Source: Actinomycetota bacterium (GTDB lineage: Bacteria; Actinomycetota; Acidimicrobiia; IMCC26256; JACDBD01). Taken from it: a stretch of 59,751 nucleotides of DNA. The stretch covers positions 1-59,751 of the forward strand of contig JBKOWY010000112.1 of assembly GCA_046724655.1 (NCBI GenBank), read 5' to 3'. Below the pieces are notes generated by a model. It made no database searches, was not told the origin of the DNA, and saw nothing but the letters and a program-made list of their open reading frames with translations. Made by a program: the position numbers and the translations under genes. Positions 9,685 to 44,246 of this stretch are shown piece by piece. The stretch's first letter is position 1. Every line of letters starts with the position of its first letter.

Positions 9685-9725
9685 ATGCGCTCCTGAACCT
9701 CGCGATGCGAAGTTCAGGAGCGCAT
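9685..9725. terminator. Perfect 14-bp inverted repeat between convergent genes (putative bidirectional terminator)
   Basis: ATGCGCTCCTGAAC (9685-9698) and GTTCAGGAGCGCAT (9712-9725) flank a 13-nt loop. It lies between the SDR stop (9674) and the peroxiredoxin stop (9731). Confidence 0.6.
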
Positions 9726-9730
9726 CATCG

Positions 9731-10192
9731 TCAGGCGTTCTGCAGCTCGTACAGGTCGGCCAGCACTTCGGCGGGATGCACGGGAATGTCCGAGACCTCA
9801 TACGACTTGCGGATCACACCCTCGGGATCGATGAGGTAGCTGTAGCGCTTCGAGAAGCTGACCTTGTCGGATCCTGGATCCCGCGTCTCGTACTTCACGC
9901 CGACCTGCTCGTCGTAGTCGGACAACAACCGGAACGGGAAGTCGTGCTTCTCGCGGAACGCCTTGTTGGCCTCGGGCGCGTCGAAGCTGATCCCGAGGAT
10001 CTCGCAGTTCATGCTCTCGTAGTCAGCAGCCTGGTCACGCAGGCCTTTCCCCTCGATCGTTCAGCCTGGGGTGTCGGCCATCGGGTACCACCACAGCAGC
10101 ACCCAGCGGCCGCGCAGATCGGAGAGGGTGACGGCGTTCCCGTCCTGGTCCGGGACCGTGAAGTCCGGAGCTTCCGTACCTGGTTGGAGCAC
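9731..10192 (-). CDS. Bcp-type peroxiredoxin with in-frame TGA (10063..10061) at the peroxidatic Cys position: candidate selenoprotein, alternatively a pseudogene
   Basis: Manual translation from GTG 10192 gives VLQPGTEAPDFTVPDQDGNAVTLSDLRGRWVLLWWYPMADTPG[TGA]TIEGKGLRDQAADYESMNCEILGISFD... This is collinear with E. coli Bcp ...YFYPKAMTPGCTVQACGLRD...VLGIS. The ORF track lists only 9731..10012. Confidence 0.7.
10028..10045 (-). other. Candidate SECIS-like hairpin downstream of the in-frame UGA
   Basis: The mRNA reads UGA-N15-GGCCUG CGUGAC CAGGCU: a 6-bp stem (one G-U) and a 6-nt loop containing G/U. The spacing is compatible with bacterial SECIS rules as I recall them. The stem is modest and has not been scored computationally. 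Confidence 0.3.
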
Positions 10193-10194
10193 GT

Positions 10195-11397
10195 CTAAAC
10201 CGCCGCCTTCTCGAGGACGTGCACCGCGCACGCCGAGCCGAGCCCGATCACGTGCGTCAGCCCGACCTTGGCGCCCTCGATCTGGCGATCGCCGGCCTCG
10301 CCCCGCAGGTGCGTTGCGACCTCGTAGAGATTGGCGACCCCCGTCGCGCCGAGCGGATGTCCCTTGGAAATGAGCCCACCAGACACGTTCACGGGGATCT
10401 CACCGTCACGCCACGGGCCCCGCTCCTCGATGAACTTGCCCGCCTCGCCCGGCTTGCACAGCCCGAGGTTGTCGTAATGGATCAGCTCCGCCGTGGCGAA
10501 GCAGTCGTGCAGCTCGACGAGGTCGAGGTCGGACGGCTCGACGCCGGCGGTCTCGTACGCCTCGTTGGCCGCCTGGCGCGTGAGCGTGTTCACGTCCGGC
10601 TGGACCTGATCCGTCTCGGTCCACGGATCAGAGGTCATCACCGACGCCGAGATCTTCACGGCCCGCTTGCGCTGATCGTCGGACACGGTCTTGAGCTTCT
10701 CCTCCGACACCAGCACGAGCGCGGCGCCACCGTCGCCGGTCGGGCAGCACATCAGCAACGTGTTCGGGTACGCCATCATCTCGGCGCCCATGATCTCGTC
10801 GAGCGAGAACTCCTTCTGGTACTGGGCCAGCGGGTTCAGCGTGGAATGGGCATGGTTCTTCTCGGCGACCTTGGCGAACTGCTCGAACCCGACGCCGCCG
10901 TGCTCGTTCGCGTACTCCATGCCGGCTTGCGCGAACACGCCCGGCATCAGAGTCGTGCCGAGCCGGCCCTCGACGCTCATGACCGAGCCGTAGCGCCCCG
11001 ACGGCTCGAACACCTTCTTGTCGGAGCGGGGCGCGCTCCCGAGCAGCCCGGCCTTCCCCATCTTCTCGAGCCCGACGGCAATGCCCATGTCGGCCTCGCC
11101 GGACTTGATCGCCATGTACGCGCAGCGGACGGCGGTGGCGCCCGTCGCGCACGCATTCGCCACGTTGTAGACGGGAATGCCGTTCTGGCCGACCTGCTTC
11201 TGGATGCGCTGACCAACCCCGGTGCTCGCCTCCACGAGGTTCCCGGCCCCCATGACGTCCATGTCGGCCATCGTGACGCCGGCGTCGTCGAGGGCGCCGA
11301 GTGCCGCTTCGGCACCGAGGTCGATGAGGTCCTTGTCGGGATACCGCGTGAACTTCGTCATCGACGCGCCCAGGATCCAGACGTCGCGCTCAGCCAT
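10195..11397 (-). CDS. Thiolase-fold protein (SCP-x/lipid-transfer type acetyl-CoA acetyltransferase family)
   Basis: 400 aa with NVANACATGATAV (active-site Cys region) and C-terminal GHPLGATG, GLGSACA. Its TAG stop lies 2 nt before the peroxiredoxin GTG. Confidence 0.9.
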   Translation of the reverse strand: MAERDVWILGASMTKFTRYPDKDLIDLGAEAALGALDDAGVTMADMDVMGAGNLVEASTGVGQRIQKQVGQNGIPVYNVANACATGATAVRCAYMAIKSGEADMGIAVGLEKMGKAGLLGSAPRSDKKVFEPSGRYGSVMSVEGRLGTTLMPGVFAQAGMEYANEHGGVGFEQFAKVAEKNHAHSTLNPLAQYQKEFSLDEIMGAEMMAYPNTLLMCCPTGDGGAALVLVSEEKLKTVSDDQRKRAVKISASVMTSDPWTETDQVQPDVNTLTRQAANEAYETAGVEPSDLDLVELHDCFATAELIHYDNLGLCKPGEAGKFIEERGPWRDGEIPVNVSGGLISKGHPLGATGVANLYEVATHLRGEAGDRQIEGAKVGLTHVIGLGSACAVHVLEKAAV

Positions 11398-16929: not shown

Positions 16930-16961
16930 GGTGCAGAGCTTGGACGTCGGCGGCCGCCCGT

Positions 16962-17897
16962 TTACCAGTAATTGATTCGGGTCGCCCGTTCCGTGGCGAC
17001 GTCGATGTCGTCGGTCCAAGCGCCCGAGGAGAGGTACTTCCATCCCGCGTCAGGGACGAGCGTGACGATTGTTCCCGCGTCCATCGTCGCCGCCATCTTC
17101 GCCGCGCCGGCGACGACGGCCCCCGACGAGATGCCGGCGAAGATACTGCACTCGTTGAGCAAGCGGCGCGTCCACTCGATCGACTCGCGCGGTCGAACGA
17201 TGAACTTCCGGTCCAACACCTCCGGATCGAAGATCGGCGGCACGAACCCGTCGTCCAGCGAGCGCAGTCCTTGTACGAGCTCGCCCGCCGGTGGCTCGAC
17301 CGCGACCACGCGTACGCCCGGCTTCTGTTCCTTCAGGTACCTTCCGACGCCCATCAGCGTGCCGCTCGTCCCGAGGCCGGCGACGAACACGTCGACCTCG
17401 GGGCAGTCGCGCAGGATCTCGGGCCCGGTTGTCGCGTAGTGCGCTTCCGGGTTCGCAGGGTTGCCGTACTGGAACAGCATCACGAGCGACGGGTCGTCGG
17501 CGGCGAGCTTCTCGGCCACACGGATCGCGCCGTTGCTGCCCTCCTCCCCCGGCGACCGGATCACCTCTGCGCCGAAGATCTCCAGGAGCTGACGGCGTTC
17601 CTCGGAGACGTTCTCGGGCAGGACGACGCGCAACCGGTAGCCCTTCATCTTGGCGACGAGCGCGAGGCCGATGCCCGTGTTCCCGGAGGACGGCTCCAGG
17701 ATGGTGTCGCCCGGTTTGAGCACGCCTTCCCGCTCGGCCGCGTTCACCATCCACAGCGCGATGCGATCCTTCATCGAGCCGCCCGGGTTCTGGCCTTCGA
17801 GCTTGGTGTAGATGCGCACCGCCGGGTTCGGCGAGAGCGTGTGGATGCCGACGAGAGGCGTGTTGCCGATGCAGTCGAGGATCGACTCGTACCTCAT
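16962..17897 (-). CDS. cysM: Cysteine synthase, CysM-like (sulfur-carrier dependent type by context)
   Basis: 311 aa with NPGGSMKDR (PLP Lys), SSGNTGIGLA, GTSGTLMGVG. It lies downstream of cysO/mec as in M. tuberculosis Rv1334-1336. Confidence 0.88.
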   Translation of the reverse strand: MRYESILDCIGNTPLVGIHTLSPNPAVRIYTKLEGQNPGGSMKDRIALWMVNAAEREGVLKPGDTILEPSSGNTGIGLALVAKMKGYRLRVVLPENVSEERRQLLEIFGAEVIRSPGEEGSNGAIRVAEKLAADDPSLVMLFQYGNPANPEAHYATTGPEILRDCPEVDVFVAGLGTSGTLMGVGRYLKEQKPGVRVVAVEPPAGELVQGLRSLDDGFVPPIFDPEVLDRKFIVRPRESIEWTRRLLNECSIFAGISSGAVVAGAAKMAATMDAGTIVTLVPDAGWKYLSSGAWTDDIDVATERATRINYW

Positions 17898-17904
17898 ATC
17901 ACTG

Positions 17905-17963
17905 GTCGCCGTCGCAGGCTCCGGCTCCTGCGACGACGATCGGCAATGCCGTCCTCGTCGCGG
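17905..17963 (+). repeat. Interspersed structured repeat, copy F (diverged)
   Basis: GTCGCCGTCGCAGGCTCCGGCTCCTGCGACGACGATCGGCAATGCCGTCCTCGTCGCGG. It lies in the cysO-cysM spacer, 7 nt before the cysM start. The 3' hairpin is kept as GCGACGA/TCGTCGC. Confidence 0.75.
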
Positions 17964-17977
17964 CCATCAGGCCCTGC

Positions 17978-18253
17978 CTATCCCCCGGCGACCGCGGGGA
18001 GGATCGAGACGACGTCGCCGTCGGTCAGCTTGGTGTCGAGCTGGTCGAGGTACCGGACGTCGTCGTCGTTGCGGTACACGTTGACGAACTTCCGCAGGCT
18101 GCCCGAGTCGTCGACGAGCTGCTCGGAGATGCCCGGGTAGCGGACCGCGAGCTCGGCGAAGACTTCGCCCACGGTGCCTTCGGGGGCCGTCACCGACGTC
18201 GCGCCACCGGCGAGCGGGCGCAGCTGCGTCGGCAAACGGACTTCGACGGGCAC
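17978..18253 (-). CDS. cysO: MoaD/ThiS-family sulfur carrier protein (CysO-like), C-terminal GG
   Basis: 91 aa ending ...ILPAVAGG. GTG start. It sits between the JAMM protease and cysM. Confidence 0.85.
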   Translation of the reverse strand: MPVEVRLPTQLRPLAGGATSVTAPEGTVGEVFAELAVRYPGISEQLVDDSGSLRKFVNVYRNDDDVRYLDQLDTKLTDGDVVSILPAVAGG

Positions 18254-18304
18254 GCCGTCAGTCTACAAGTCGACCTGTACGGTCCGGATTTCCGCGGCTT
18301 CCCA

Positions 18305-18736
18305 TCATGAGACGACGACCTGGCACTCGGCGATGTCGCCGTCTCGGATGCGGTACGCGCGCAGCACAGGCTCGGCGTCGCGCAGGCTCACGAGCACATA
18401 GACCCACTCGGGGTACCACGCGGCTTGGGCGACGTCGGTCGCCGACGGGTATGCGTCGGTGTGGGTGTGGCTGTGCCAGCAACCTACGATCTCTTCGCCT
18501 CGCTGCTCAGCCGCACGCATCGCCGCGATCTGGTCGCGGCCGTCGATCCGGTACGTCAGCGCGGACGCGTCCTCGTTGCGGCACGGTCGCACCTCGGTGA
18601 CGACACCCGACGGCTCCCGGTCGGAAACCGGGCCGATGAGCAGCCCGCACGCCTCGTAGGGCAGCCCGTCGTAGGAGTGGCCGATGATCGTGCGGTAATG
18701 CTCGTCCGTGAGCCGGAGCGATGTCGCGAAGCCCAT
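18305..18736 (-). CDS. mec: JAMM/MPN+ metalloprotease (Mec-like)
   Basis: 143 aa with EACGLLIG and WHSHTHTDAYPSATD (HxHx7Sx2D). Confidence 0.85.
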   Translation of the reverse strand: MGFATSLRLTDEHYRTIIGHSYDGLPYEACGLLIGPVSDREPSGVVTEVRPCRNEDASALTYRIDGRDQIAAMRAAEQRGEEIVGCWHSHTHTDAYPSATDVAQAAWYPEWVYVLVSLRDAEPVLRAYRIRDGDIAECQVVVS

Positions 18737-18742
18737 CGGGTG

Positions 18743-21046
18743 TCAGCGGGGCGGCGAGGCGGCGTCGCGGATGGCCCGCCACACCCGCTCGGACGTGAGC
18801 GGCATGTCCAGGTGGCGAATCCCGTAAATCGACAGCGCGTCGACGACCGCGTTCTGCGCCGCCGGCGTCGAGCCGATCGTGCCCGCCTCACCGATGCCCT
18901 TGGCGCCGAGCGGGTTCAGCGGCGTCGGCGTCTCGGTGTTCGACGCCTCGAAGCTCGGCAGCTCGGCAGCGCTCGGCATCGCATAGTCCATGAGGTTGGC
19001 CGTTTGCGGGTTGCCGTCCTCGTCGTAGGCGACGCCCTCGTACAGTGCCTGGGCCACGCCCTGCGCGATGCCACCGTGCTGCTGCCCGCGGACGAGGAGC
19101 GGGTTGATGACGCGGCCGCAGTCGTCGACGGCCACGTGGCGTAGGAGCTCAACGTGACCCGTCTCGGTGTCGACCTCGACCACTGCGATGTGCGCGCCGA
19201 ACGGATAGGTGGCCTCTCCCTGGTTGTAGTCGAGATCGGCCCGCAGGCCCTCCTCGAAGTCGGGCGGCCGCTTGGCTTCGTCGGACGCGGCCAGAGCGAG
19301 CTCCGCCCACGACAGCGAGGTGGCGGGGGCGCCGACCACGCCGATCCGGCCGTCGTCGTGCACGACGATGTCGGTGATGTCGGCCTCGAGCAGGTGCGCG
19401 GCCAGTCGCTTGGCCTTGTCGAGCACGAGCTCGCTCGTCTTGTACAGTGCGCTGCCGCCGATTTGCATCGAGCGCGATCCCATCGTGCCCATCCCGCGCG
19501 GAACGAGCGCGGTGTCGGATTGCACGACGCGCACGTTGTCGAGCGACATCCCGAGCAGTTCGGCGACGATCATCTTGAACGCCGTCTCGAGACCCTGCCC
19601 GTGTGCTGATGTGCCTACCGTCGCGGTGACGGTGCCGTCGGTGTGGACCTCGACCGCGCCATACTCCTGGAAGAGTCCGCCCGCGGTCACCTCCGTGTAG
19701 ACGGAAATGCCGATCCCGAGCTGCTTCACGTCGCCGCGCTCACGCCGCTCCGCTTGATCGCGGCGCAGCTCCTCGTACCCCGCGACGCGACAGGCCTCGT
19801 CCAGAGCTTTGGCGTAGTCCGCGGAGTCGTAGTTGGCGCCGGTCACCGTGGTGAGCGGGAACTCTTCGGGACGGAGAAAGTTCTGCTTCCGAAGGTCGAC
19901 CGGATCGCGGCCCAACTCCAGGGCGGCCATGTCGACGATGCGCTCGAGCAGCGCGGCCGCCTCCGGGCGGCCGGCGCCCCGGTACGCGCTCGTCGGCGTC
20001 GTGTTCGTGATCGCGCTCTTCGAGTTCATCTGGATCTTGGGGATGCGGTACACGCCCTGACTCATCGACCGGGTGAGGTACGGCAGGAACGAGCCGATCC
20101 CGGGATACGCGCCGCCGTCGCACACGATCTGTCCCCGCAGGCCGGTAAAGGTGCCGTCGCGCTCGAGGCCGAACTCGATGTGCTGGATCTGCCCGCGGCC
20201 GTGGGTCATCGCCGTCATGTTCTCGGATCGGGTCTCCGCCCACTTCAACGGCCGCCCGAGCTTCCGGGCCGCAGTGGCGACCACGGCGAACTCCGGGTAC
20301 AGGCCCGCCTTGGCACCGAAGCCACCGCCGACAGCCGCCGCCACCACCCGAACCCGCTCCTCCTCCAGCCCGACGACGCCGGCGAGTGGGTCGCGCACAC
20401 CGTGCGGGTTCTGGGTCGGGACATGGAGGGTGAGACCGTCCTCGCCGTCGAGCTCGACGAGGATGCCGTTCGGCTCCATCGGCACGGGCGCGAGGCGCTG
20501 GTTCACGAAGCGTCCCTGCACGACGACGTCGGCGTCGTCGAGGATCGCCGGGTCGTCCCCGAAGTTGAACTGGATGGCGAGGTTCGAACCGTGCTCGGGG
20601 AAGACGAGGGGCGCGTCATCCGAGAGCGCGGCCTCGGGGTCGATCACGGTGGGCAGCGGGTCGTAGTCGACGATCACCATCTCGGCGGCGTCGACCGCCT
20701 GGGCGCGCGTCTCGGCGACGACGGTCGCCACCATGTCGCCCACGAAACGCACGACGCCACGCGCGAGCGGCGGCCGCGCCAACGAAGCGGGAACCATCGC
20801 AAACCCCTGGAGAGGCTCGAGGCCGAGGTCGTCGGCCGTGTACACAGCGACGACGCCCGGCATCGCGACCGCATCGCTCGTGTCGATCGACTCGACTCGA
20901 GCGTGCGCCATCGTCGACCGCACGAACGCGACGTGGAGCAAACCCTCGACCTCGATGTCGTCGAAGTACTCCGCGTCCCCCCGCAGGATGCGAGGGTCCT
21001 CGGTGCGCTTGACCGGATTACCGAGAATGGAGCCGGAGGTGGTCAT
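18743..21046 (-). CDS. Molybdopterin-binding large subunit of the xanthine dehydrogenase/CoxL family (form II-like AYRGAGR motif)
   Basis: ORF track 18743..21169. True start is ATG 21046 (MTTSGSILGNPVKRTEDPRILRG) with AGGAG upstream. AYRGAGRPEA is present. The stop lies 6 nt before the mec start. No CoxM/CoxS-type genes are in the window. Confidence 0.85.
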   Translation of the reverse strand: MTTSGSILGNPVKRTEDPRILRGDAEYFDDIEVEGLLHVAFVRSTMAHARVESIDTSDAVAMPGVVAVYTADDLGLEPLQGFAMVPASLARPPLARGVVRFVGDMVATVVAETRAQAVDAAEMVIVDYDPLPTVIDPEAALSDDAPLVFPEHGSNLAIQFNFGDDPAILDDADVVVQGRFVNQRLAPVPMEPNGILVELDGEDGLTLHVPTQNPHGVRDPLAGVVGLEEERVRVVAAAVGGGFGAKAGLYPEFAVVATAARKLGRPLKWAETRSENMTAMTHGRGQIQHIEFGLERDGTFTGLRGQIVCDGGAYPGIGSFLPYLTRSMSQGVYRIPKIQMNSKSAITNTTPTSAYRGAGRPEAAALLERIVDMAALELGRDPVDLRKQNFLRPEEFPLTTVTGANYDSADYAKALDEACRVAGYEELRRDQAERRERGDVKQLGIGISVYTEVTAGGLFQEYGAVEVHTDGTVTATVGTSAHGQGLETAFKMIVAELLGMSLDNVRVVQSDTALVPRGMGTMGSRSMQIGGSALYKTSELVLDKAKRLAAHLLEADITDIVVHDDGRIGVVGAPATSLSWAELALAASDEAKRPPDFEEGLRADLDYNQGEATYPFGAHIAVVEVDTETGHVELLRHVAVDDCGRVINPLLVRGQQHGGIAQGVAQALYEGVAYDEDGNPQTANLMDYAMPSAAELPSFEASNTETPTPLNPLGAKGIGEAGTIGSTPAAQNAVVDALSIYGIRHLDMPLTSERVWRAIRDAASPPR

Positions 21047-21056
21047 GAACACTCCT

Positions 21057-21112
21057 GTCGCCGTCGCAAGCTCCGGCTTTGTGGCGACGGTCAGCGAAGC
21101 CGCCGTCGCCGC
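21057..21112 (+). repeat. Interspersed structured repeat, copy A
   Basis: GTCGCCGTCGCAAGCTCCGGCTTTGTGGCGACGGTCAGCGAAGCCGCCGTCGCCGC. It lies 10 nt upstream of the coxL-like start and 22 nt before the smpB start. An AT-rich TATAGATTTCG box lies just beyond it. Confidence 0.85.
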
Positions 21113-21134
21113 ACGAAATCTATACAGTCCGGTC

Positions 21135-21596
21135 GTGGGCCGTCGCGGCGACGCCGTCGCCATCCGCAACCGGCGCGCCCGGTACGACTACCACGTGCTC
21201 GATTCGTTCGAGTGCGGGATCGTCCTGGCGGGATCGGAGGTGAAGTCGATCCGTGACGGGCGCGCCAACCTCCAGGACGCGTACGCCCGGGTCGAGGACG
21301 GCGAGGTGTGGCTCCACGGGATGCACATCGCGCCGTACGAGTTCTCCCGGGCCGAGCTCGAGCCGACGCGTCGCAGGAAGCTGCTCCTGCACCGTAAGCA
21401 GATCGAGACCCTGACCCGCGCCACAGGCGAGAAGGGGGTGACCCTGGTGCCGTTGCGCCTCTACTTCAAGGACGGACGAGCGAAGGTCGAGCTGGCCGTG
21501 GCCAAGGGGAAGCGCGCCTACGACAAGCGACGCGCCATCGCCGAGCGCGATGCCAAGCGGGAGACCGAGCGGGCGATGAAAGGTCTGCGCGACTGA
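21135..21596 (+). CDS. smpB: SsrA-binding protein
   Basis: C-terminal 153 aa of ORF 20733..21596: IRNRRARYDYHVLDSFECGIVLAGSEVKSIR...LLLHRKQI...GKRAYDKRR. GTG 21135 is the first start outside the antisense coxL-like gene. Confidence 0.9.
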   Translation: MGRRGDAVAIRNRRARYDYHVLDSFECGIVLAGSEVKSIRDGRANLQDAYARVEDGEVWLHGMHIAPYEFSRAELEPTRRRKLLLHRKQIETLTRATGEKGVTLVPLRLYFKDGRAKVELAVAKGKRAYDKRRAIAERDAKRETERAMKGLRD

Positions 21597-22936: not shown

Positions 22937-23294
22937 GGGGGTGACTGGCTTCGATTCTGAGGACCAAAACGGGTGAAGCGAGCCGACGTCCCCGGATCGT
23001 CGCTAAAGAGCCGGGAACACCAATAAATGCCGAGGACAAGAACCTCGCACTCGCTGCTTAATAACTAAGTAGCGCGTCCACTCCGGCCCAGCCGCTCGGC
23101 CGGACACCGGGCGTCATGCAGAGCGGCTCACCGCCGGGACGGGCCTCGCGGCCCGGCGGGACACCACAGCGAGGCTGGGGTCGCCGGACGCCGCCGGTGA
23201 GCGGCGGCGGCCCGAGAACTCCTCACCGGCTGCGCTCGGAGAAGCCCCGCTGAGGACTCGGAAGACGCGGGTTCGATTCCCGCCACCTCCACCA
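22937..23294 (+). ncRNA. ssrA: tmRNA (SsrA)
   Basis: The 5' GGGGGTG pairs with the 3' CACCTCC-A-CCA (G3-U identity pair). T-arm-like GGTTCGATTCCCGCC is present. Tag reading frame is GCC GAG GAC AAG AAC CTC GCA CTC GCT GCT TAA TAA (23029-23064), encoding AEDKNLALAA. Confidence 0.92.
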
Positions 23295-27057: not shown

Positions 27058-27636
27058 TTACCCGAGACCGTCGAGGACCGCCCGCCCCCGGGGCGAGAGG
27101 CGGTACCCCACGTCGAGGCTCTCGGTGAGGCCGAGCTCCTTCAGCTTTCGTACGTCCCGCTTGAACGACAGCCGCTCGCGGCCGACGGCGGCGGCGAGAT
27201 TGCCGGCCCGAACGGCGGGGTGGTCGCGGATCAGCCGCAGGGCCTGAATCGTCCAGGGGCCGTGGCGGCTCGCGGCGTCGAGCCGTTCGAGACGGCTCCG
27301 CACCTCGGCCAGCTCGTCCGACGTCAGCGCGTCGCGCTCGCGCAGCACGGCGCGTGGGTCGCTACCGGCGAGGTGCAACGCGACCCGGTACACGGAGCCG
27401 TCGGTACGCGACGCGAGCTCGTCCAGCAGGTCGACCCGCGACGAGAAGCCGGCGCGGCGAGCGTCCTTCTCGCTGATCTCAGCGATGTCCACCTCGTCCA
27501 CGGCGTCGACGGCAAGGACCCCGATCGCCGTCCGCAGCTGACTCCCCGCTCGAACGCGCGGACGCACCCAGCGCCGGAAGGCGAGGCTGACCGTCCCGCC
27601 GGCAATGCCGTCGAGGACGTGCCGCTTGAACAGCAA
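27058..27636 (-). CDS. ASCH-like domain protein with C-terminal winged-helix
   Basis: 192 aa. TTG start abuts the upstream stop. N-terminal FKRHVLDGIAGGTVSLAFRRW resembles ASCH. The C-terminal KRDVRKLKELGLTESL is wHTH-like. Family call is tentative. Confidence 0.5.
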   Translation of the reverse strand: MLFKRHVLDGIAGGTVSLAFRRWVRPRVRAGSQLRTAIGVLAVDAVDEVDIAEISEKDARRAGFSSRVDLLDELASRTDGSVYRVALHLAGSDPRAVLRERDALTSDELAEVRSRLERLDAASRHGPWTIQALRLIRDHPAVRAGNLAAAVGRERLSFKRDVRKLKELGLTESLDVGYRLSPRGRAVLDGLG

Positions 27637-39307: not shown

Positions 39308-39943
39308 ATGGCACTTCGCTTGGGGGACACGGCTCCCGACTTCACCACGGAGACCACCGAGGGCAAGCTGAACTTCTACGACTACCTCGGCGACAGCTGG
39401 GGCCTCCTCTTCTCGCACCCGAAGGACTTCACACCGGTATGCACGACCGAGCTCGGCGCGATCGCGAAGCGCAAGTCCGAGTTCGACCAGCGCAACGTGA
39501 AGCTGATGGGCATCAGCGTCGACCCGCTGGACGCACACGAGGGCTGGTCTAAGGACATCGAGGAGACGCAGGGGGCGGCGCCGAACTTCCCGATGATCGC
39601 CGACCCCGACCGCAAGGTCGCTGACCTTTACGACATGATCCACCCGAACGCGAGTGACACCGTGACGGTCCGCTCCGTGTTCGTCATCGGACCGGACAAG
39701 AAGGTCAAGCTGACGATCACGTACCCGCAGAGCACCGGACGCAACGTCGACGAGCTCCTGCGGGTGATCGACTCGGTGCAGCTGACTGCCGGCTACCAGG
39801 TCTCGACGCCGGTCGACTGGCAACAGGGCGATGACGTGATCATCATCCCGGCCGTCTCGGACGACGAGGCGAAGGGCAAGTTCCCGAAGGGCTGGAAGGC
39901 CCTCAAGCCCTACCTCCGCGTCACGCCCCAGCCCGACAAGTAA
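39308..39943 (+). CDS. 1-Cys peroxiredoxin (Prx6 type)
   Basis: 211 aa with LFSHPKDFTPVCTTELG, VKLMGISVD, HPNASDTVTVRSVFVIGPDKK. GAGGAGAGAG RBS. Confidence 0.95.
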   Translation: MALRLGDTAPDFTTETTEGKLNFYDYLGDSWGLLFSHPKDFTPVCTTELGAIAKRKSEFDQRNVKLMGISVDPLDAHEGWSKDIEETQGAAPNFPMIADPDRKVADLYDMIHPNASDTVTVRSVFVIGPDKKVKLTITYPQSTGRNVDELLRVIDSVQLTAGYQVSTPVDWQQGDDVIIIPAVSDDEAKGKFPKGWKALKPYLRVTPQPDK

Positions 39944-43106: not shown

Positions 43107-44246
43107 CTAACAGGCCGGTCCGGAAGGCGGCACCGGCGGTGTGCTGCCGTTCTGCTGCCGGTGCCACTGGAGGTACTCCTCGATGAAGGAGTCGAACTCG
43201 CCGTCGAGCACGGCGCGTACGTTGCCGGTCTCGTAACGGGTCCGCTCGTCCTTGACGAGCTGGAATGGCGCGAGCGTGTACGTCCGGATCTGATTCCCGA
43301 ACGCGACCTCGCGCTTCTCCCCTGAGAGGGCTTCGAGCTCGTGTTGACGTTCGACGCGTTGACGCTCCGCGAGTCGTGCGGCGAGAATCTGCATCGCCTT
43401 CGCGCGGTTCTGGATCTGAGAACGTTCGTTCTGGACCGATACCACGATGCCGGTAGGGATGTGCGTGACGCGCACGGCGGAATCCGTGACGTTCACATGC
43501 TGGCCGCCCGCGCCCGACGACCGGTATGTGTCGATGCGCAGCTCGCTGGGGTCGATTTCCGGTTCTTCGGCTTGGTCGAGTGCGGGGACGGCATCGAAGG
43601 ACGCGAAGGCGGTGTGACGACGGGCGTTGGCGTCGAACGGTGAGATGCGAATGAGCCTGTGCACGCCCTTCTCGCCCCGAAGCAATCCGTACGCGTACCG
43701 CCCCTTGACGATGAACGTCGCGGAGGTGATGCCCGCCTCCGTGCCACCTTGGACCTCGTCGAGCTCGACGTCGAACCCTCGACGTTCCGCCCAGCGCAGA
43801 TACATGCGCAGCAACATCTCCGCCCAGTCCTGGGCGTCGGTGCCCCCGGCGCCCGAGTGGATCTCGCAGATCGCATCGCGCTCGTCGTGCTCCCCCGTGA
43901 ACAATGCCCGCAGCTCGAGCCGGTCGAGATCCGCGGCCAGAGCGTCGATGCCGGAGACGATCTCCGATTCGACCGAGTCGTCGTCCTCCTCGCGGCCTAG
44001 CTCGAAGAGCGTCTCGAGCTCCGACTGGCGTTCCTCGAGGCCGTCGACCAGCGCCAGGTCGTCGCGCACCTGGGCCAGCTCGGTCGTGACCTTGCGCGCT
44101 TGGTCCTGGTCGTTCCACAAGTCCGGCTTGCTGGCCTCCTCCTCGAGCTCGGCCAGACGGGCGCGTGCAGCGTCGATCTGCAGGTAGGCGCGCGCGTCAT
44201 CGACGCGGCGGCGGAGATCGGCCAGGGGTTCGGTGTGATCGCGCAT
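43107..44246 (-). CDS. prfB: Peptide chain release factor 2 (single uninterrupted frame)
   Basis: 379 aa with the SPF motif (RISPFDANARRHT) and GGQ (SSGAGGQHVN). The N-terminus is contiguous, so there is no programmed frameshift site. Confidence 0.95.
   Translation of the reverse strand: MRDHTEPLADLRRRVDDARAYLQIDAARARLAELEEEASKPDLWNDQDQARKVTTELAQVRDDLALVDGLEERQSELETLFELGREEDDDSVESEIVSGIDALAADLDRLELRALFTGEHDERDAICEIHSGAGGTDAQDWAEMLLRMYLRWAERRGFDVELDEVQGGTEAGITSATFIVKGRYAYGLLRGEKGVHRLIRISPFDANARRHTAFASFDAVPALDQAEEPEIDPSELRIDTYRSSGAGGQHVNVTDSAVRVTHIPTGIVVSVQNERSQIQNRAKAMQILAARLAERQRVERQHELEALSGEKREVAFGNQIRTYTLAPFQLVKDERTRYETGNVRAVLDGEFDSFIEEYLQWHRQQNGSTPPVPPSGPAC

Follow-up and report, generated by a model that had tools for sequence, protein, structure and literature searches.

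A conserved in-frame TGA as a probable selenocysteine codon in a Bcp-type peroxiredoxin gene from soil Acidimicrobiia

Known Sec-peroxiredoxins and the gene in the window

Peroxiredoxins that carry selenocysteine (Sec) in a PxxxTxxU motif form an established family (Zhang et al. 2006, PMC1794560; 2026 review, PMC13188914). Among the 25 bacterial selenoprotein families in the 2006 tabulation, it ranked fifth by number of members (Zhang et al. 2006, PMC1794560). Only PrxU of Eubacterium acidaminophilum (Sohling et al. 2001) is listed as experimentally verified. The gene described here shares with this family the AhpC/TSA fold, a predicted Sec in place of the peroxidatic Cys within P-x3-T-x2-U, a UGA followed by an in-frame stem-loop that fits the bacterial SECIS (bSECIS) model, and the widespread occurrence of Cys homologues. 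It differs in its source and type: the members counted in 2006 were mainly from anaerobic Deltaproteobacteria and Clostridia, whereas the present clade comes from metagenome-assembled genomes (MAGs) of soil Acidimicrobiia, is of the Bcp/PrxQ type and has no dedicated NCBIfam model. A literature search of incomplete coverage returned nothing specific on a Sec-containing Bcp/PrxQ protein. The gene represents an unannotated, Bcp-type, mainly acidimicrobial clade of the already known Sec-peroxiredoxins.

The gene lies in a 59,751-nt stretch of DNA from an Actinomycetota bacterium, referred to here as the window. In the program-made list of open reading frames (ORFs), it appeared solely as two ORFs of 56 and 93 aa, and in the public gene calls for contig JBKPFX010000052.1 (103 kb; MAG GCA_046729035.1), where the window corresponds to positions 8738-68488, it was split into products of 43 and 93 aa. 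The features of the full-length reading are as follows.

9731..10192, minus strand: predicted Sec-peroxiredoxin gene, Bcp/PrxQ-like, 153 codons plus stop, with a GTG start at 10192..10190 and a terminal TGA at 9733..9731.
10061..10063, minus strand: putative Sec codon UGA (codon 44), which occupies the peroxidatic site within the motif P37-x3-T41-x2-U44.
9844..9846, minus strand: codon for Arg116, the conserved active-site arginine of peroxiredoxins (in KRYSYLID), which aligns with the Arg of 'ERSTFLID' in structure 5enu.
9731..10012, minus strand: 93-aa ORF from Met61 as reported by gene callers, not an independent gene.

The preliminary description, made from the window alone, had proposed a 153-codon Bcp homologue read from the GTG at 10192, a TGA at the peroxidatic site, a Lys in place of the usual resolving Cys five residues later and an intact reading frame with peroxiredoxin motifs downstream. 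Retranslation of the minus strand reproduced all of this exactly. Codon 44 is preceded by WWYPMADTPG and followed by TIEGKGLRD, it aligns with the catalytic Cys of the Bcp structures 5enu and 2ywn, the +5 residue is Lys49, and the motifs ILGISFD, FPFRLLSD and YLIDPEG are all found in the translation downstream of the TGA. With Cys placed at position 44, the protein matched the Pfam AhpC-TSA profile end to end (PF00578; residues 4-129 on profile positions 1-123 of 124; E=1.1e-34; 119.5 bits against a 26-bit cutoff). The active-site pattern of peroxiredoxins, P-x3-T/S-x2-C(U) together with Arg, was found as Pro37, Thr41, U44 and Arg116, all four being invariant in the 53 TGA-carrying genes that were compared (see below). 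A search of the PDB identified 22 solved peroxiredoxin chains at E<=1e-10, the best of which were 5enu, 2ywn and 2cx3 (E of about 1e-23 to 1e-20).

Based on the NCBIfam and PDB comparisons, the window protein is classed as Bcp/PrxQ-like, this being its nearest subfamily, and not as an equivalog. The Bcp equivalog model NF006960 gave 105.2 bits (cutoff, 140) and the PrxQ model NF053650 gave 91.5 bits (cutoff, 260). With the Bcp/PrxQ proteins (E. coli Bcp, NF006960; structures 5enu, 2ywn/4g2e and 2cx3), the window protein has in common a size of about 155 aa, the YP-x3-TPG-C/U-T motif and the conserved Arg. It differs in the predicted Sec for Cys and in Lys49, which occupies the place of the +5 resolving Cys of many Bcps, the residue that marks the atypical 2-Cys Bcp arrangement. 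The comparison with PrxU made in the preliminary description stands as an analogy, the peroxidatic residue of PrxU being likewise Sec, but it does not extend to family membership. PrxU belongs to another peroxiredoxin subfamily, and filing of the 153-aa window protein under PrxU was rejected because its score with the NCBIfam model NF040737 was far below cutoff (57.3 against 270 bits, over profile positions 36-178 of 233).

The window encodes a second peroxiredoxin at 39308-39943 (plus strand), a Cys-containing protein of 211 aa and of the 1-Cys/Prx6 type (AhpC-TSA and 1-cysPrx_C domains).

Conservation of the TGA and its possible readings

When one genome per GTDB species was scanned, 60 loci related to the window gene were obtained. 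In all 52 of the closest (L001-L052; protein identity from 96% down to 47%), TGA was present at exactly codon 44, and TGC or TGT was found at this position solely in six more distant homologues. Recurrence of the same TGA in 52 of 52 relatives is far beyond chance. The 52 loci were mostly from Acidimicrobiia MAGs, with one each labelled Acidobacteriota, Neomarinimicrobiota and Burkholderiales; the last of these (L020) has an Acidimicrobiia-like gene at 77% identity and is probably misbinned. The possibility that the 52 loci are copies of one contaminant was ruled out by the 47-96% spread in identity.

Together with the window gene, these loci make up the set of 53 TGA-carrying genes. Each of the 53 contains exactly one in-frame stop. 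No frameshifts were observed, there were no indels upstream of codon 61, and variation at third codon positions was about twofold higher in each of three segments, codons 2-43, 45-60 and 61-153, so that a coding pattern is seen on both sides of the TGA. The start position and the gene length were conserved across the 52 relatives. About half of the 120 best matches in the protein database were proteins of 93-94 aa (74-94% identity) confined to the region downstream of the TGA, and the full-length proteins among the same 120 matches reached at most 74% identity. Other in-frame TGAs in the window were confined to junctions between adjacent genes, and no second selenoprotein candidate was found.

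From this conservation, the existence of Cys/Sec pairs among relatives and a covarying downstream hairpin that agrees with the bSECIS model, the in-frame TGA is very probably a genuine Sec codon at the active site of a Bcp-type peroxiredoxin, as the preliminary description had suggested.

Of the other readings, the one that survives best, while still improbable, is translation of the UGA without Sec, whether by near-cognate insertion of Trp, Cys or Arg, by a local change of the code or by Cys carried on tRNASec, with the hairpin as a mere stimulator of read-through. It would be in keeping with the result that no selA, selB, selC (tRNA-Sec) or selD was found in the window or at contig positions 1,987-58,680 (Pfam/precomputed annotation, ARAGORN and Rfam). 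It would also account for six full-length JGI proteins annotated as 'peroxiredoxin Q/BCP' (P0001-P0003, P0007, P0008 and P0010), in which the motif reads TPGW with Trp at the catalytic position. These Trp calls are, however, most simply explained as TGA read as Trp by a gene caller under an alternative code. In the window, TGA terminates 31 of the 50 genes as an ordinary stop, which indicates the standard genetic code. Codon 44 is moreover the residue that needs a redox-active chalcogen, and homologues have Cys there; with Trp or Arg the enzyme would lose its activity, yet no variation is seen in its catalytic Pro, Thr and Arg. The hairpin itself has SelB-type features, namely GU in the loop and a 21-nt spacing.

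Less probable again is the production of two separate polypeptides, an N-terminal peptide of 43 residues and a C-terminal protein of 93 residues starting at Met61. This matches the output of the ORF callers. Against it, Met61 was present in only 24 of the 53 sequences, and codons 45-60, which would then be non-coding, were free of indels and showed the third-position bias described above. The 93-aa piece would also be without the entire P-T-U active-site motif.

The remaining two readings have next to no probability. The first, raised as the alternative in the preliminary description, is a TGC-to-TGA nonsense mutation in a decaying pseudogene of the window strain; it is the default reading of an in-frame stop and fits the split public annotation, but it is contradicted by the TGA in 52 of 52 relatives, the single stop per gene, the lack of frameshifts, the invariant catalytic residues and the coding pattern across the TGA. 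The second, a sequencing or assembly error, might be entertained for a metagenome-assembled genome, but was excluded since three assemblies (L061-L063), namely the NCBI MAG and two independent JGI metagenome assemblies (L062 and L063), agree at every base of the gene, including the TGA, and since the TGA is conserved across species.

A SECIS-like hairpin downstream of the UGA

The region immediately downstream of codon 44 contains the following element.

10028..10045, minus strand: SECIS-like hairpin with the 5' arm GGCCUG at 10045-10040, the loop CGUGAC at 10039-10034 and the 3' arm CAGGCU at 10033-10028.

This is exactly the hairpin named in the preliminary description, its stem beginning 15 nt past the UGA. 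It spans codons 50-55 (G-L-R-D-Q-A) and thus occupies the positions 15-32 nt downstream, with the loop 21 nt after the UGA. The published bSECIS criteria call for a loop of 3-9 nt, a stem of 4-16 bp, a G within the first two bases of the loop (G or U being the usual next base), a spacing of 16-37 nt between the UGA and the loop, and a minimum free energy (MFE) of -7.5 kcal/mol or lower. The values found were a loop of 6 nt (CGUGAC), a stem of 6 bp (6-8 bp in relatives), a spacing of 21 nt and an MFE of -8.3 to -12.7 kcal/mol, in agreement with all four published criteria. The element resembles the E. coli fdhF-type SECIS and the bSECISearch model in being a stem-loop within the coding region 3' of the UGA, in having G and then U early in the loop, and in its spacing (within 16-37 nt) and MFE (<= -7.5 kcal/mol). 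It differs from the E. coli SECIS elements in that it has no sequence similarity to them and that no bulged U was identified. A search of Rfam over the SECIS region at E<=10 gave no match. Bacterial SECIS elements are poorly represented in Rfam.

Taken alone, the window hairpin is of unremarkable stability (z=-1.25 against shuffles), and the support for it therefore comes from the comparison with relatives. In all relatives but one (L051), the last base of the 5' arm lies 23 nt past the U of the UGA. Where the common hairpin is present, the loop starts with CGUGA, or with CGGGA in L028 and L030. For 45 sequences aligned in the common register, 92.5% of cells were paired compared with 12-56% in slid registers, three of the seven pairs had changed on both sides, and none of 500 shuffles reached the observed covariation score. 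Among the compensated variants were CUC/GAG in L034, in which Gln has become Glu and the Leu codon has changed synonymously to match, CGGCC/GGCCG in the L024 group, and GAGCC/GGCUC in both L039 and L048. L044-L052 formed a class that is shifted in register and has a loop of 5 nt (GGCUCUG/CAGGGCC and GGCACUG/CAGUGCC).

Codon usage gave a corresponding picture. The synonymous sites of codons 50-52 and 54-55 were nearly frozen, and the codon for Arg52 was CGT in 94% of the sequences, a codon that accounts for only 12% of the Arg codons of the window genes. The class with a 5-nt loop has the rare codons AGG or AGT where the stem requires them, Arg54 being AGG in L044-L049. Rare codons occur at those positions where the pairing or the loop calls for them.

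Locus L051 (2215-2262), from a Neomarinimicrobiota MAG, was the exception. It has a different stem-loop, CCGCA-GUU-UGCGG, at a compatible position with the loop 16 nt after the UGA, and its SECIS appears to have been replaced rather than inherited.

Some of the pairing may be a by-product of the peptide G-L-x-x-Q-A being encoded in GC-rich codons. This is conceivable because GGCCUG is the reverse complement of CAGGCC and because a hairpin is retained in the two nearest Cys forms that encode GKGLRDQA, namely L149 (285-332; 7 bp, loop CGCGAC, in which the loop U has been lost) and L150 (1130-1177; 6 bp). Alternatively, Sec may have been converted to Cys recently in L149 and L150, leaving a fossil SECIS behind, or the hairpin may be older than Sec. 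In a neighbour-joining (NJ) tree, both were placed beside the Sec forms L043 and L048, which favours, without proving, a fossil SECIS over a by-product of the peptide. No hairpin was found in distant Cys forms.

Cys forms, Sec machinery and predicted function

The search among relatives for Cys/Sec pairs was successful. Four proteins with 66-71% identity (P0004, P0005, P0006 and P0009) have the motif TPGCTIEGC, with both the peroxidatic Cys and the resolving Cys at +5. In P0011, P0012, P0017 and P0018, the motif is TPGCT(L/M)(E/Q)G(K/Q), with the peroxidatic Cys and no +5 Cys, and many further Cys forms were found at 48-60% identity. Of these proteins, P0004 (L152:6001-6462) is the positional orthologue of the window Sec-peroxiredoxin because its neighbourhood has the same order, consisting of a ChsH2-like OB protein, a thiolase, the peroxiredoxin and a convergent SDR gene. 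In this syntenic Cys form, which has either kept or regained the +5 Cys, the hairpin has decayed to two Watson-Crick and four G-U pairs, which are not used in the MFE fold.

The +5 residue separates the two groups. It was Cys in about 15 of the 52 Cys forms compared with none of the 53 TGA-carrying genes, in which it was K, Q, I, N or R. No second Cys is conserved across these 53 genes, and 11 of them encode no Cys at all. In the NJ tree, which was calculated without bootstrap, the Sec and Cys forms were interleaved, pointing to several exchanges between them. Recurrent Cys/Sec exchange is a pattern already described for the peroxiredoxin phylogeny (Zhang et al. 2006, PMC1794560). A broader proposal, which we put forward tentatively and consider possible rather than likely, is that the Sec forms constitute a large unannotated 1-Sec, Bcp-type clade typical of soil Acidimicrobiia that are probably aerobic. 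Sec and the +5 Cys would seemingly be mutually exclusive in this clade, one group with both peroxidatic and resolving Cys would be nested within it, and repeated switches between Sec and Cys would have gone hand in hand with changes in the resolving Cys (lost or gained) and with the fate of the SECIS (decayed or retained). If this were true, the family would amount to a natural experiment on what favours Sec over Cys.

Genes for Sec biosynthesis and insertion were sought beyond the annotation of the window and contig. When the window was analysed with ARAGORN and Rfam, only a tRNA-Leu, the tmRNA gene and a doubtful 90-nt 'tRNA-Phe' were reported. The tmRNA gene (22937-23294, plus strand) encodes the tag AEDKNLALAA, and smpB was called just upstream. 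The 'tRNA-Phe (gaa)' of ARAGORN, at 27217-27306 (plus strand), lies within an ORF-rich stretch where Rfam at E<=10 found no tRNA or tRNA-Sec, and it is probably a false positive rather than a hidden tRNA-Sec. Searching the window and about 0.5 Mb of Acidimicrobiia loci by tblastn with SelA, SelB and SelD of E. coli and Tsukamurella produced no matches. The metagenome scan with an alignment of E. coli and Aquifex SelA returned Proteobacteria-like loci only, and in the search for homologues of Tsukamurella SelA, the matches listed were saturated by Mycobacteriales.

In soil Actinomycetota MAGs, selA-selB operons, one of them with selD, were found at L155-L163; no connection could be made between these operons and either the window MAG or the 52 Sec-peroxiredoxin genomes. 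At one of these loci (L159, 355-13137; a soil Actinomycetota long-read MAG), selD-selA-selB adjoin a glycine-reductase cluster containing grdA, an ORF with a GRDB domain and a thioredoxin. Gene calling divided this grdA into ORFs of 41 and 107 aa, and it provides a positive control, as a classical selenoprotein gene with the same split signature as the peroxiredoxin gene. According to a 2026 preprint, selA, selB, selC and selD are present in all 84 complete genomes of Actinomarina, which belongs to another order of the class Acidimicrobiia.

Two features next to the peroxiredoxin gene bear on its transcription.

10195..11397, minus strand: thiolase-like gene upstream of the peroxiredoxin gene, with its TAG stop (10197..10195) ending 2 nt before the peroxiredoxin GTG.
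9685..9725, minus strand: perfect 19-bp hairpin past the peroxiredoxin stop, between the convergent peroxiredoxin and SDR genes (-40.2 kcal/mol, z=-8.95), with no U-tract.

Because only 2 nt separate the thiolase stop from the GTG, these two genes are probably co-transcribed, and the order of ChsH2-like OB protein, thiolase and peroxiredoxin is conserved, including in the Cys orthologue at L152. The 19-bp hairpin was not called in a simple terminator scan; it is likely to be a bidirectional terminator of the actinobacterial type. The 2-nt gap and the position of this hairpin after the peroxiredoxin stop together suggest that the operon ends here.

Two further observations concern other parts of the window. 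A class-I release factor gene (Pfam PCRF and RF-1, 379 aa) is located at 43107-44246 (minus strand), with an 84-aa ORF overlapping its 5' side. A cluster at about 16960-21170 (minus strand) encodes a molybdenum hydroxylase (Ald_Xan_dh_C/MoCoBD, 808 aa), a JAB peptidase, ThiS and a PALP enzyme, and resembles the CysO-Mec-CysM sulfur-carrier route to cysteine of Mycobacterium.

The following mechanism is proposed. The 153-residue Bcp/PrxQ-type peroxiredoxin would be encoded on one mRNA, probably in common with the ChsH2-like and thiolase genes upstream. With the ribosome at UGA44, the complex of SelB, GTP and Sec-tRNASec would bind the hairpin through its apical loop CGUGAC, and Sec would be inserted in place of termination. 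The predicted active site of the product consists of Pro37, Thr41, Sec44 and Arg116. Its selenolate would attack the peroxide, giving a selenenic acid. With no internal resolving Cys involved, an external thiol reductant, for example a thioredoxin-type protein, would then reduce this acid directly. Such a 1-Sec cycle is suggested by the lack of a +5 Cys in all 53 TGA-carrying genes and of any Cys in 11 of them. What we infer here is decoding by SelB and tRNASec in the window organism, together with the nature of the reductant and of the peroxides used as substrates.

The finding leaves the knowledge of how selenoproteins work unchanged, and its consequences are for annotation and for the biology of the group. 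Gene callers routinely cut selenoprotein genes of such known types in two, and no NCBIfam model covers this Bcp-type clade. A predicted functional antioxidant enzyme in at least 52 species-level genomes is recorded as truncated "redoxin" fragments of 93-94 aa, as a pair of 43 and 93 aa or as Trp read-throughs. The reading favoured here, that of a Sec codon, would imply that these soil Acidimicrobiia use selenocysteine, and the Sec-peroxiredoxins would gain a Bcp-type member without a resolving Cys. The interleaved Sec forms, the hairpin-bearing Cys forms and the syntenic Cys form whose hairpin has decayed would together offer a compact system for the study of Sec/Cys exchange and of the birth and decay of SECIS elements.
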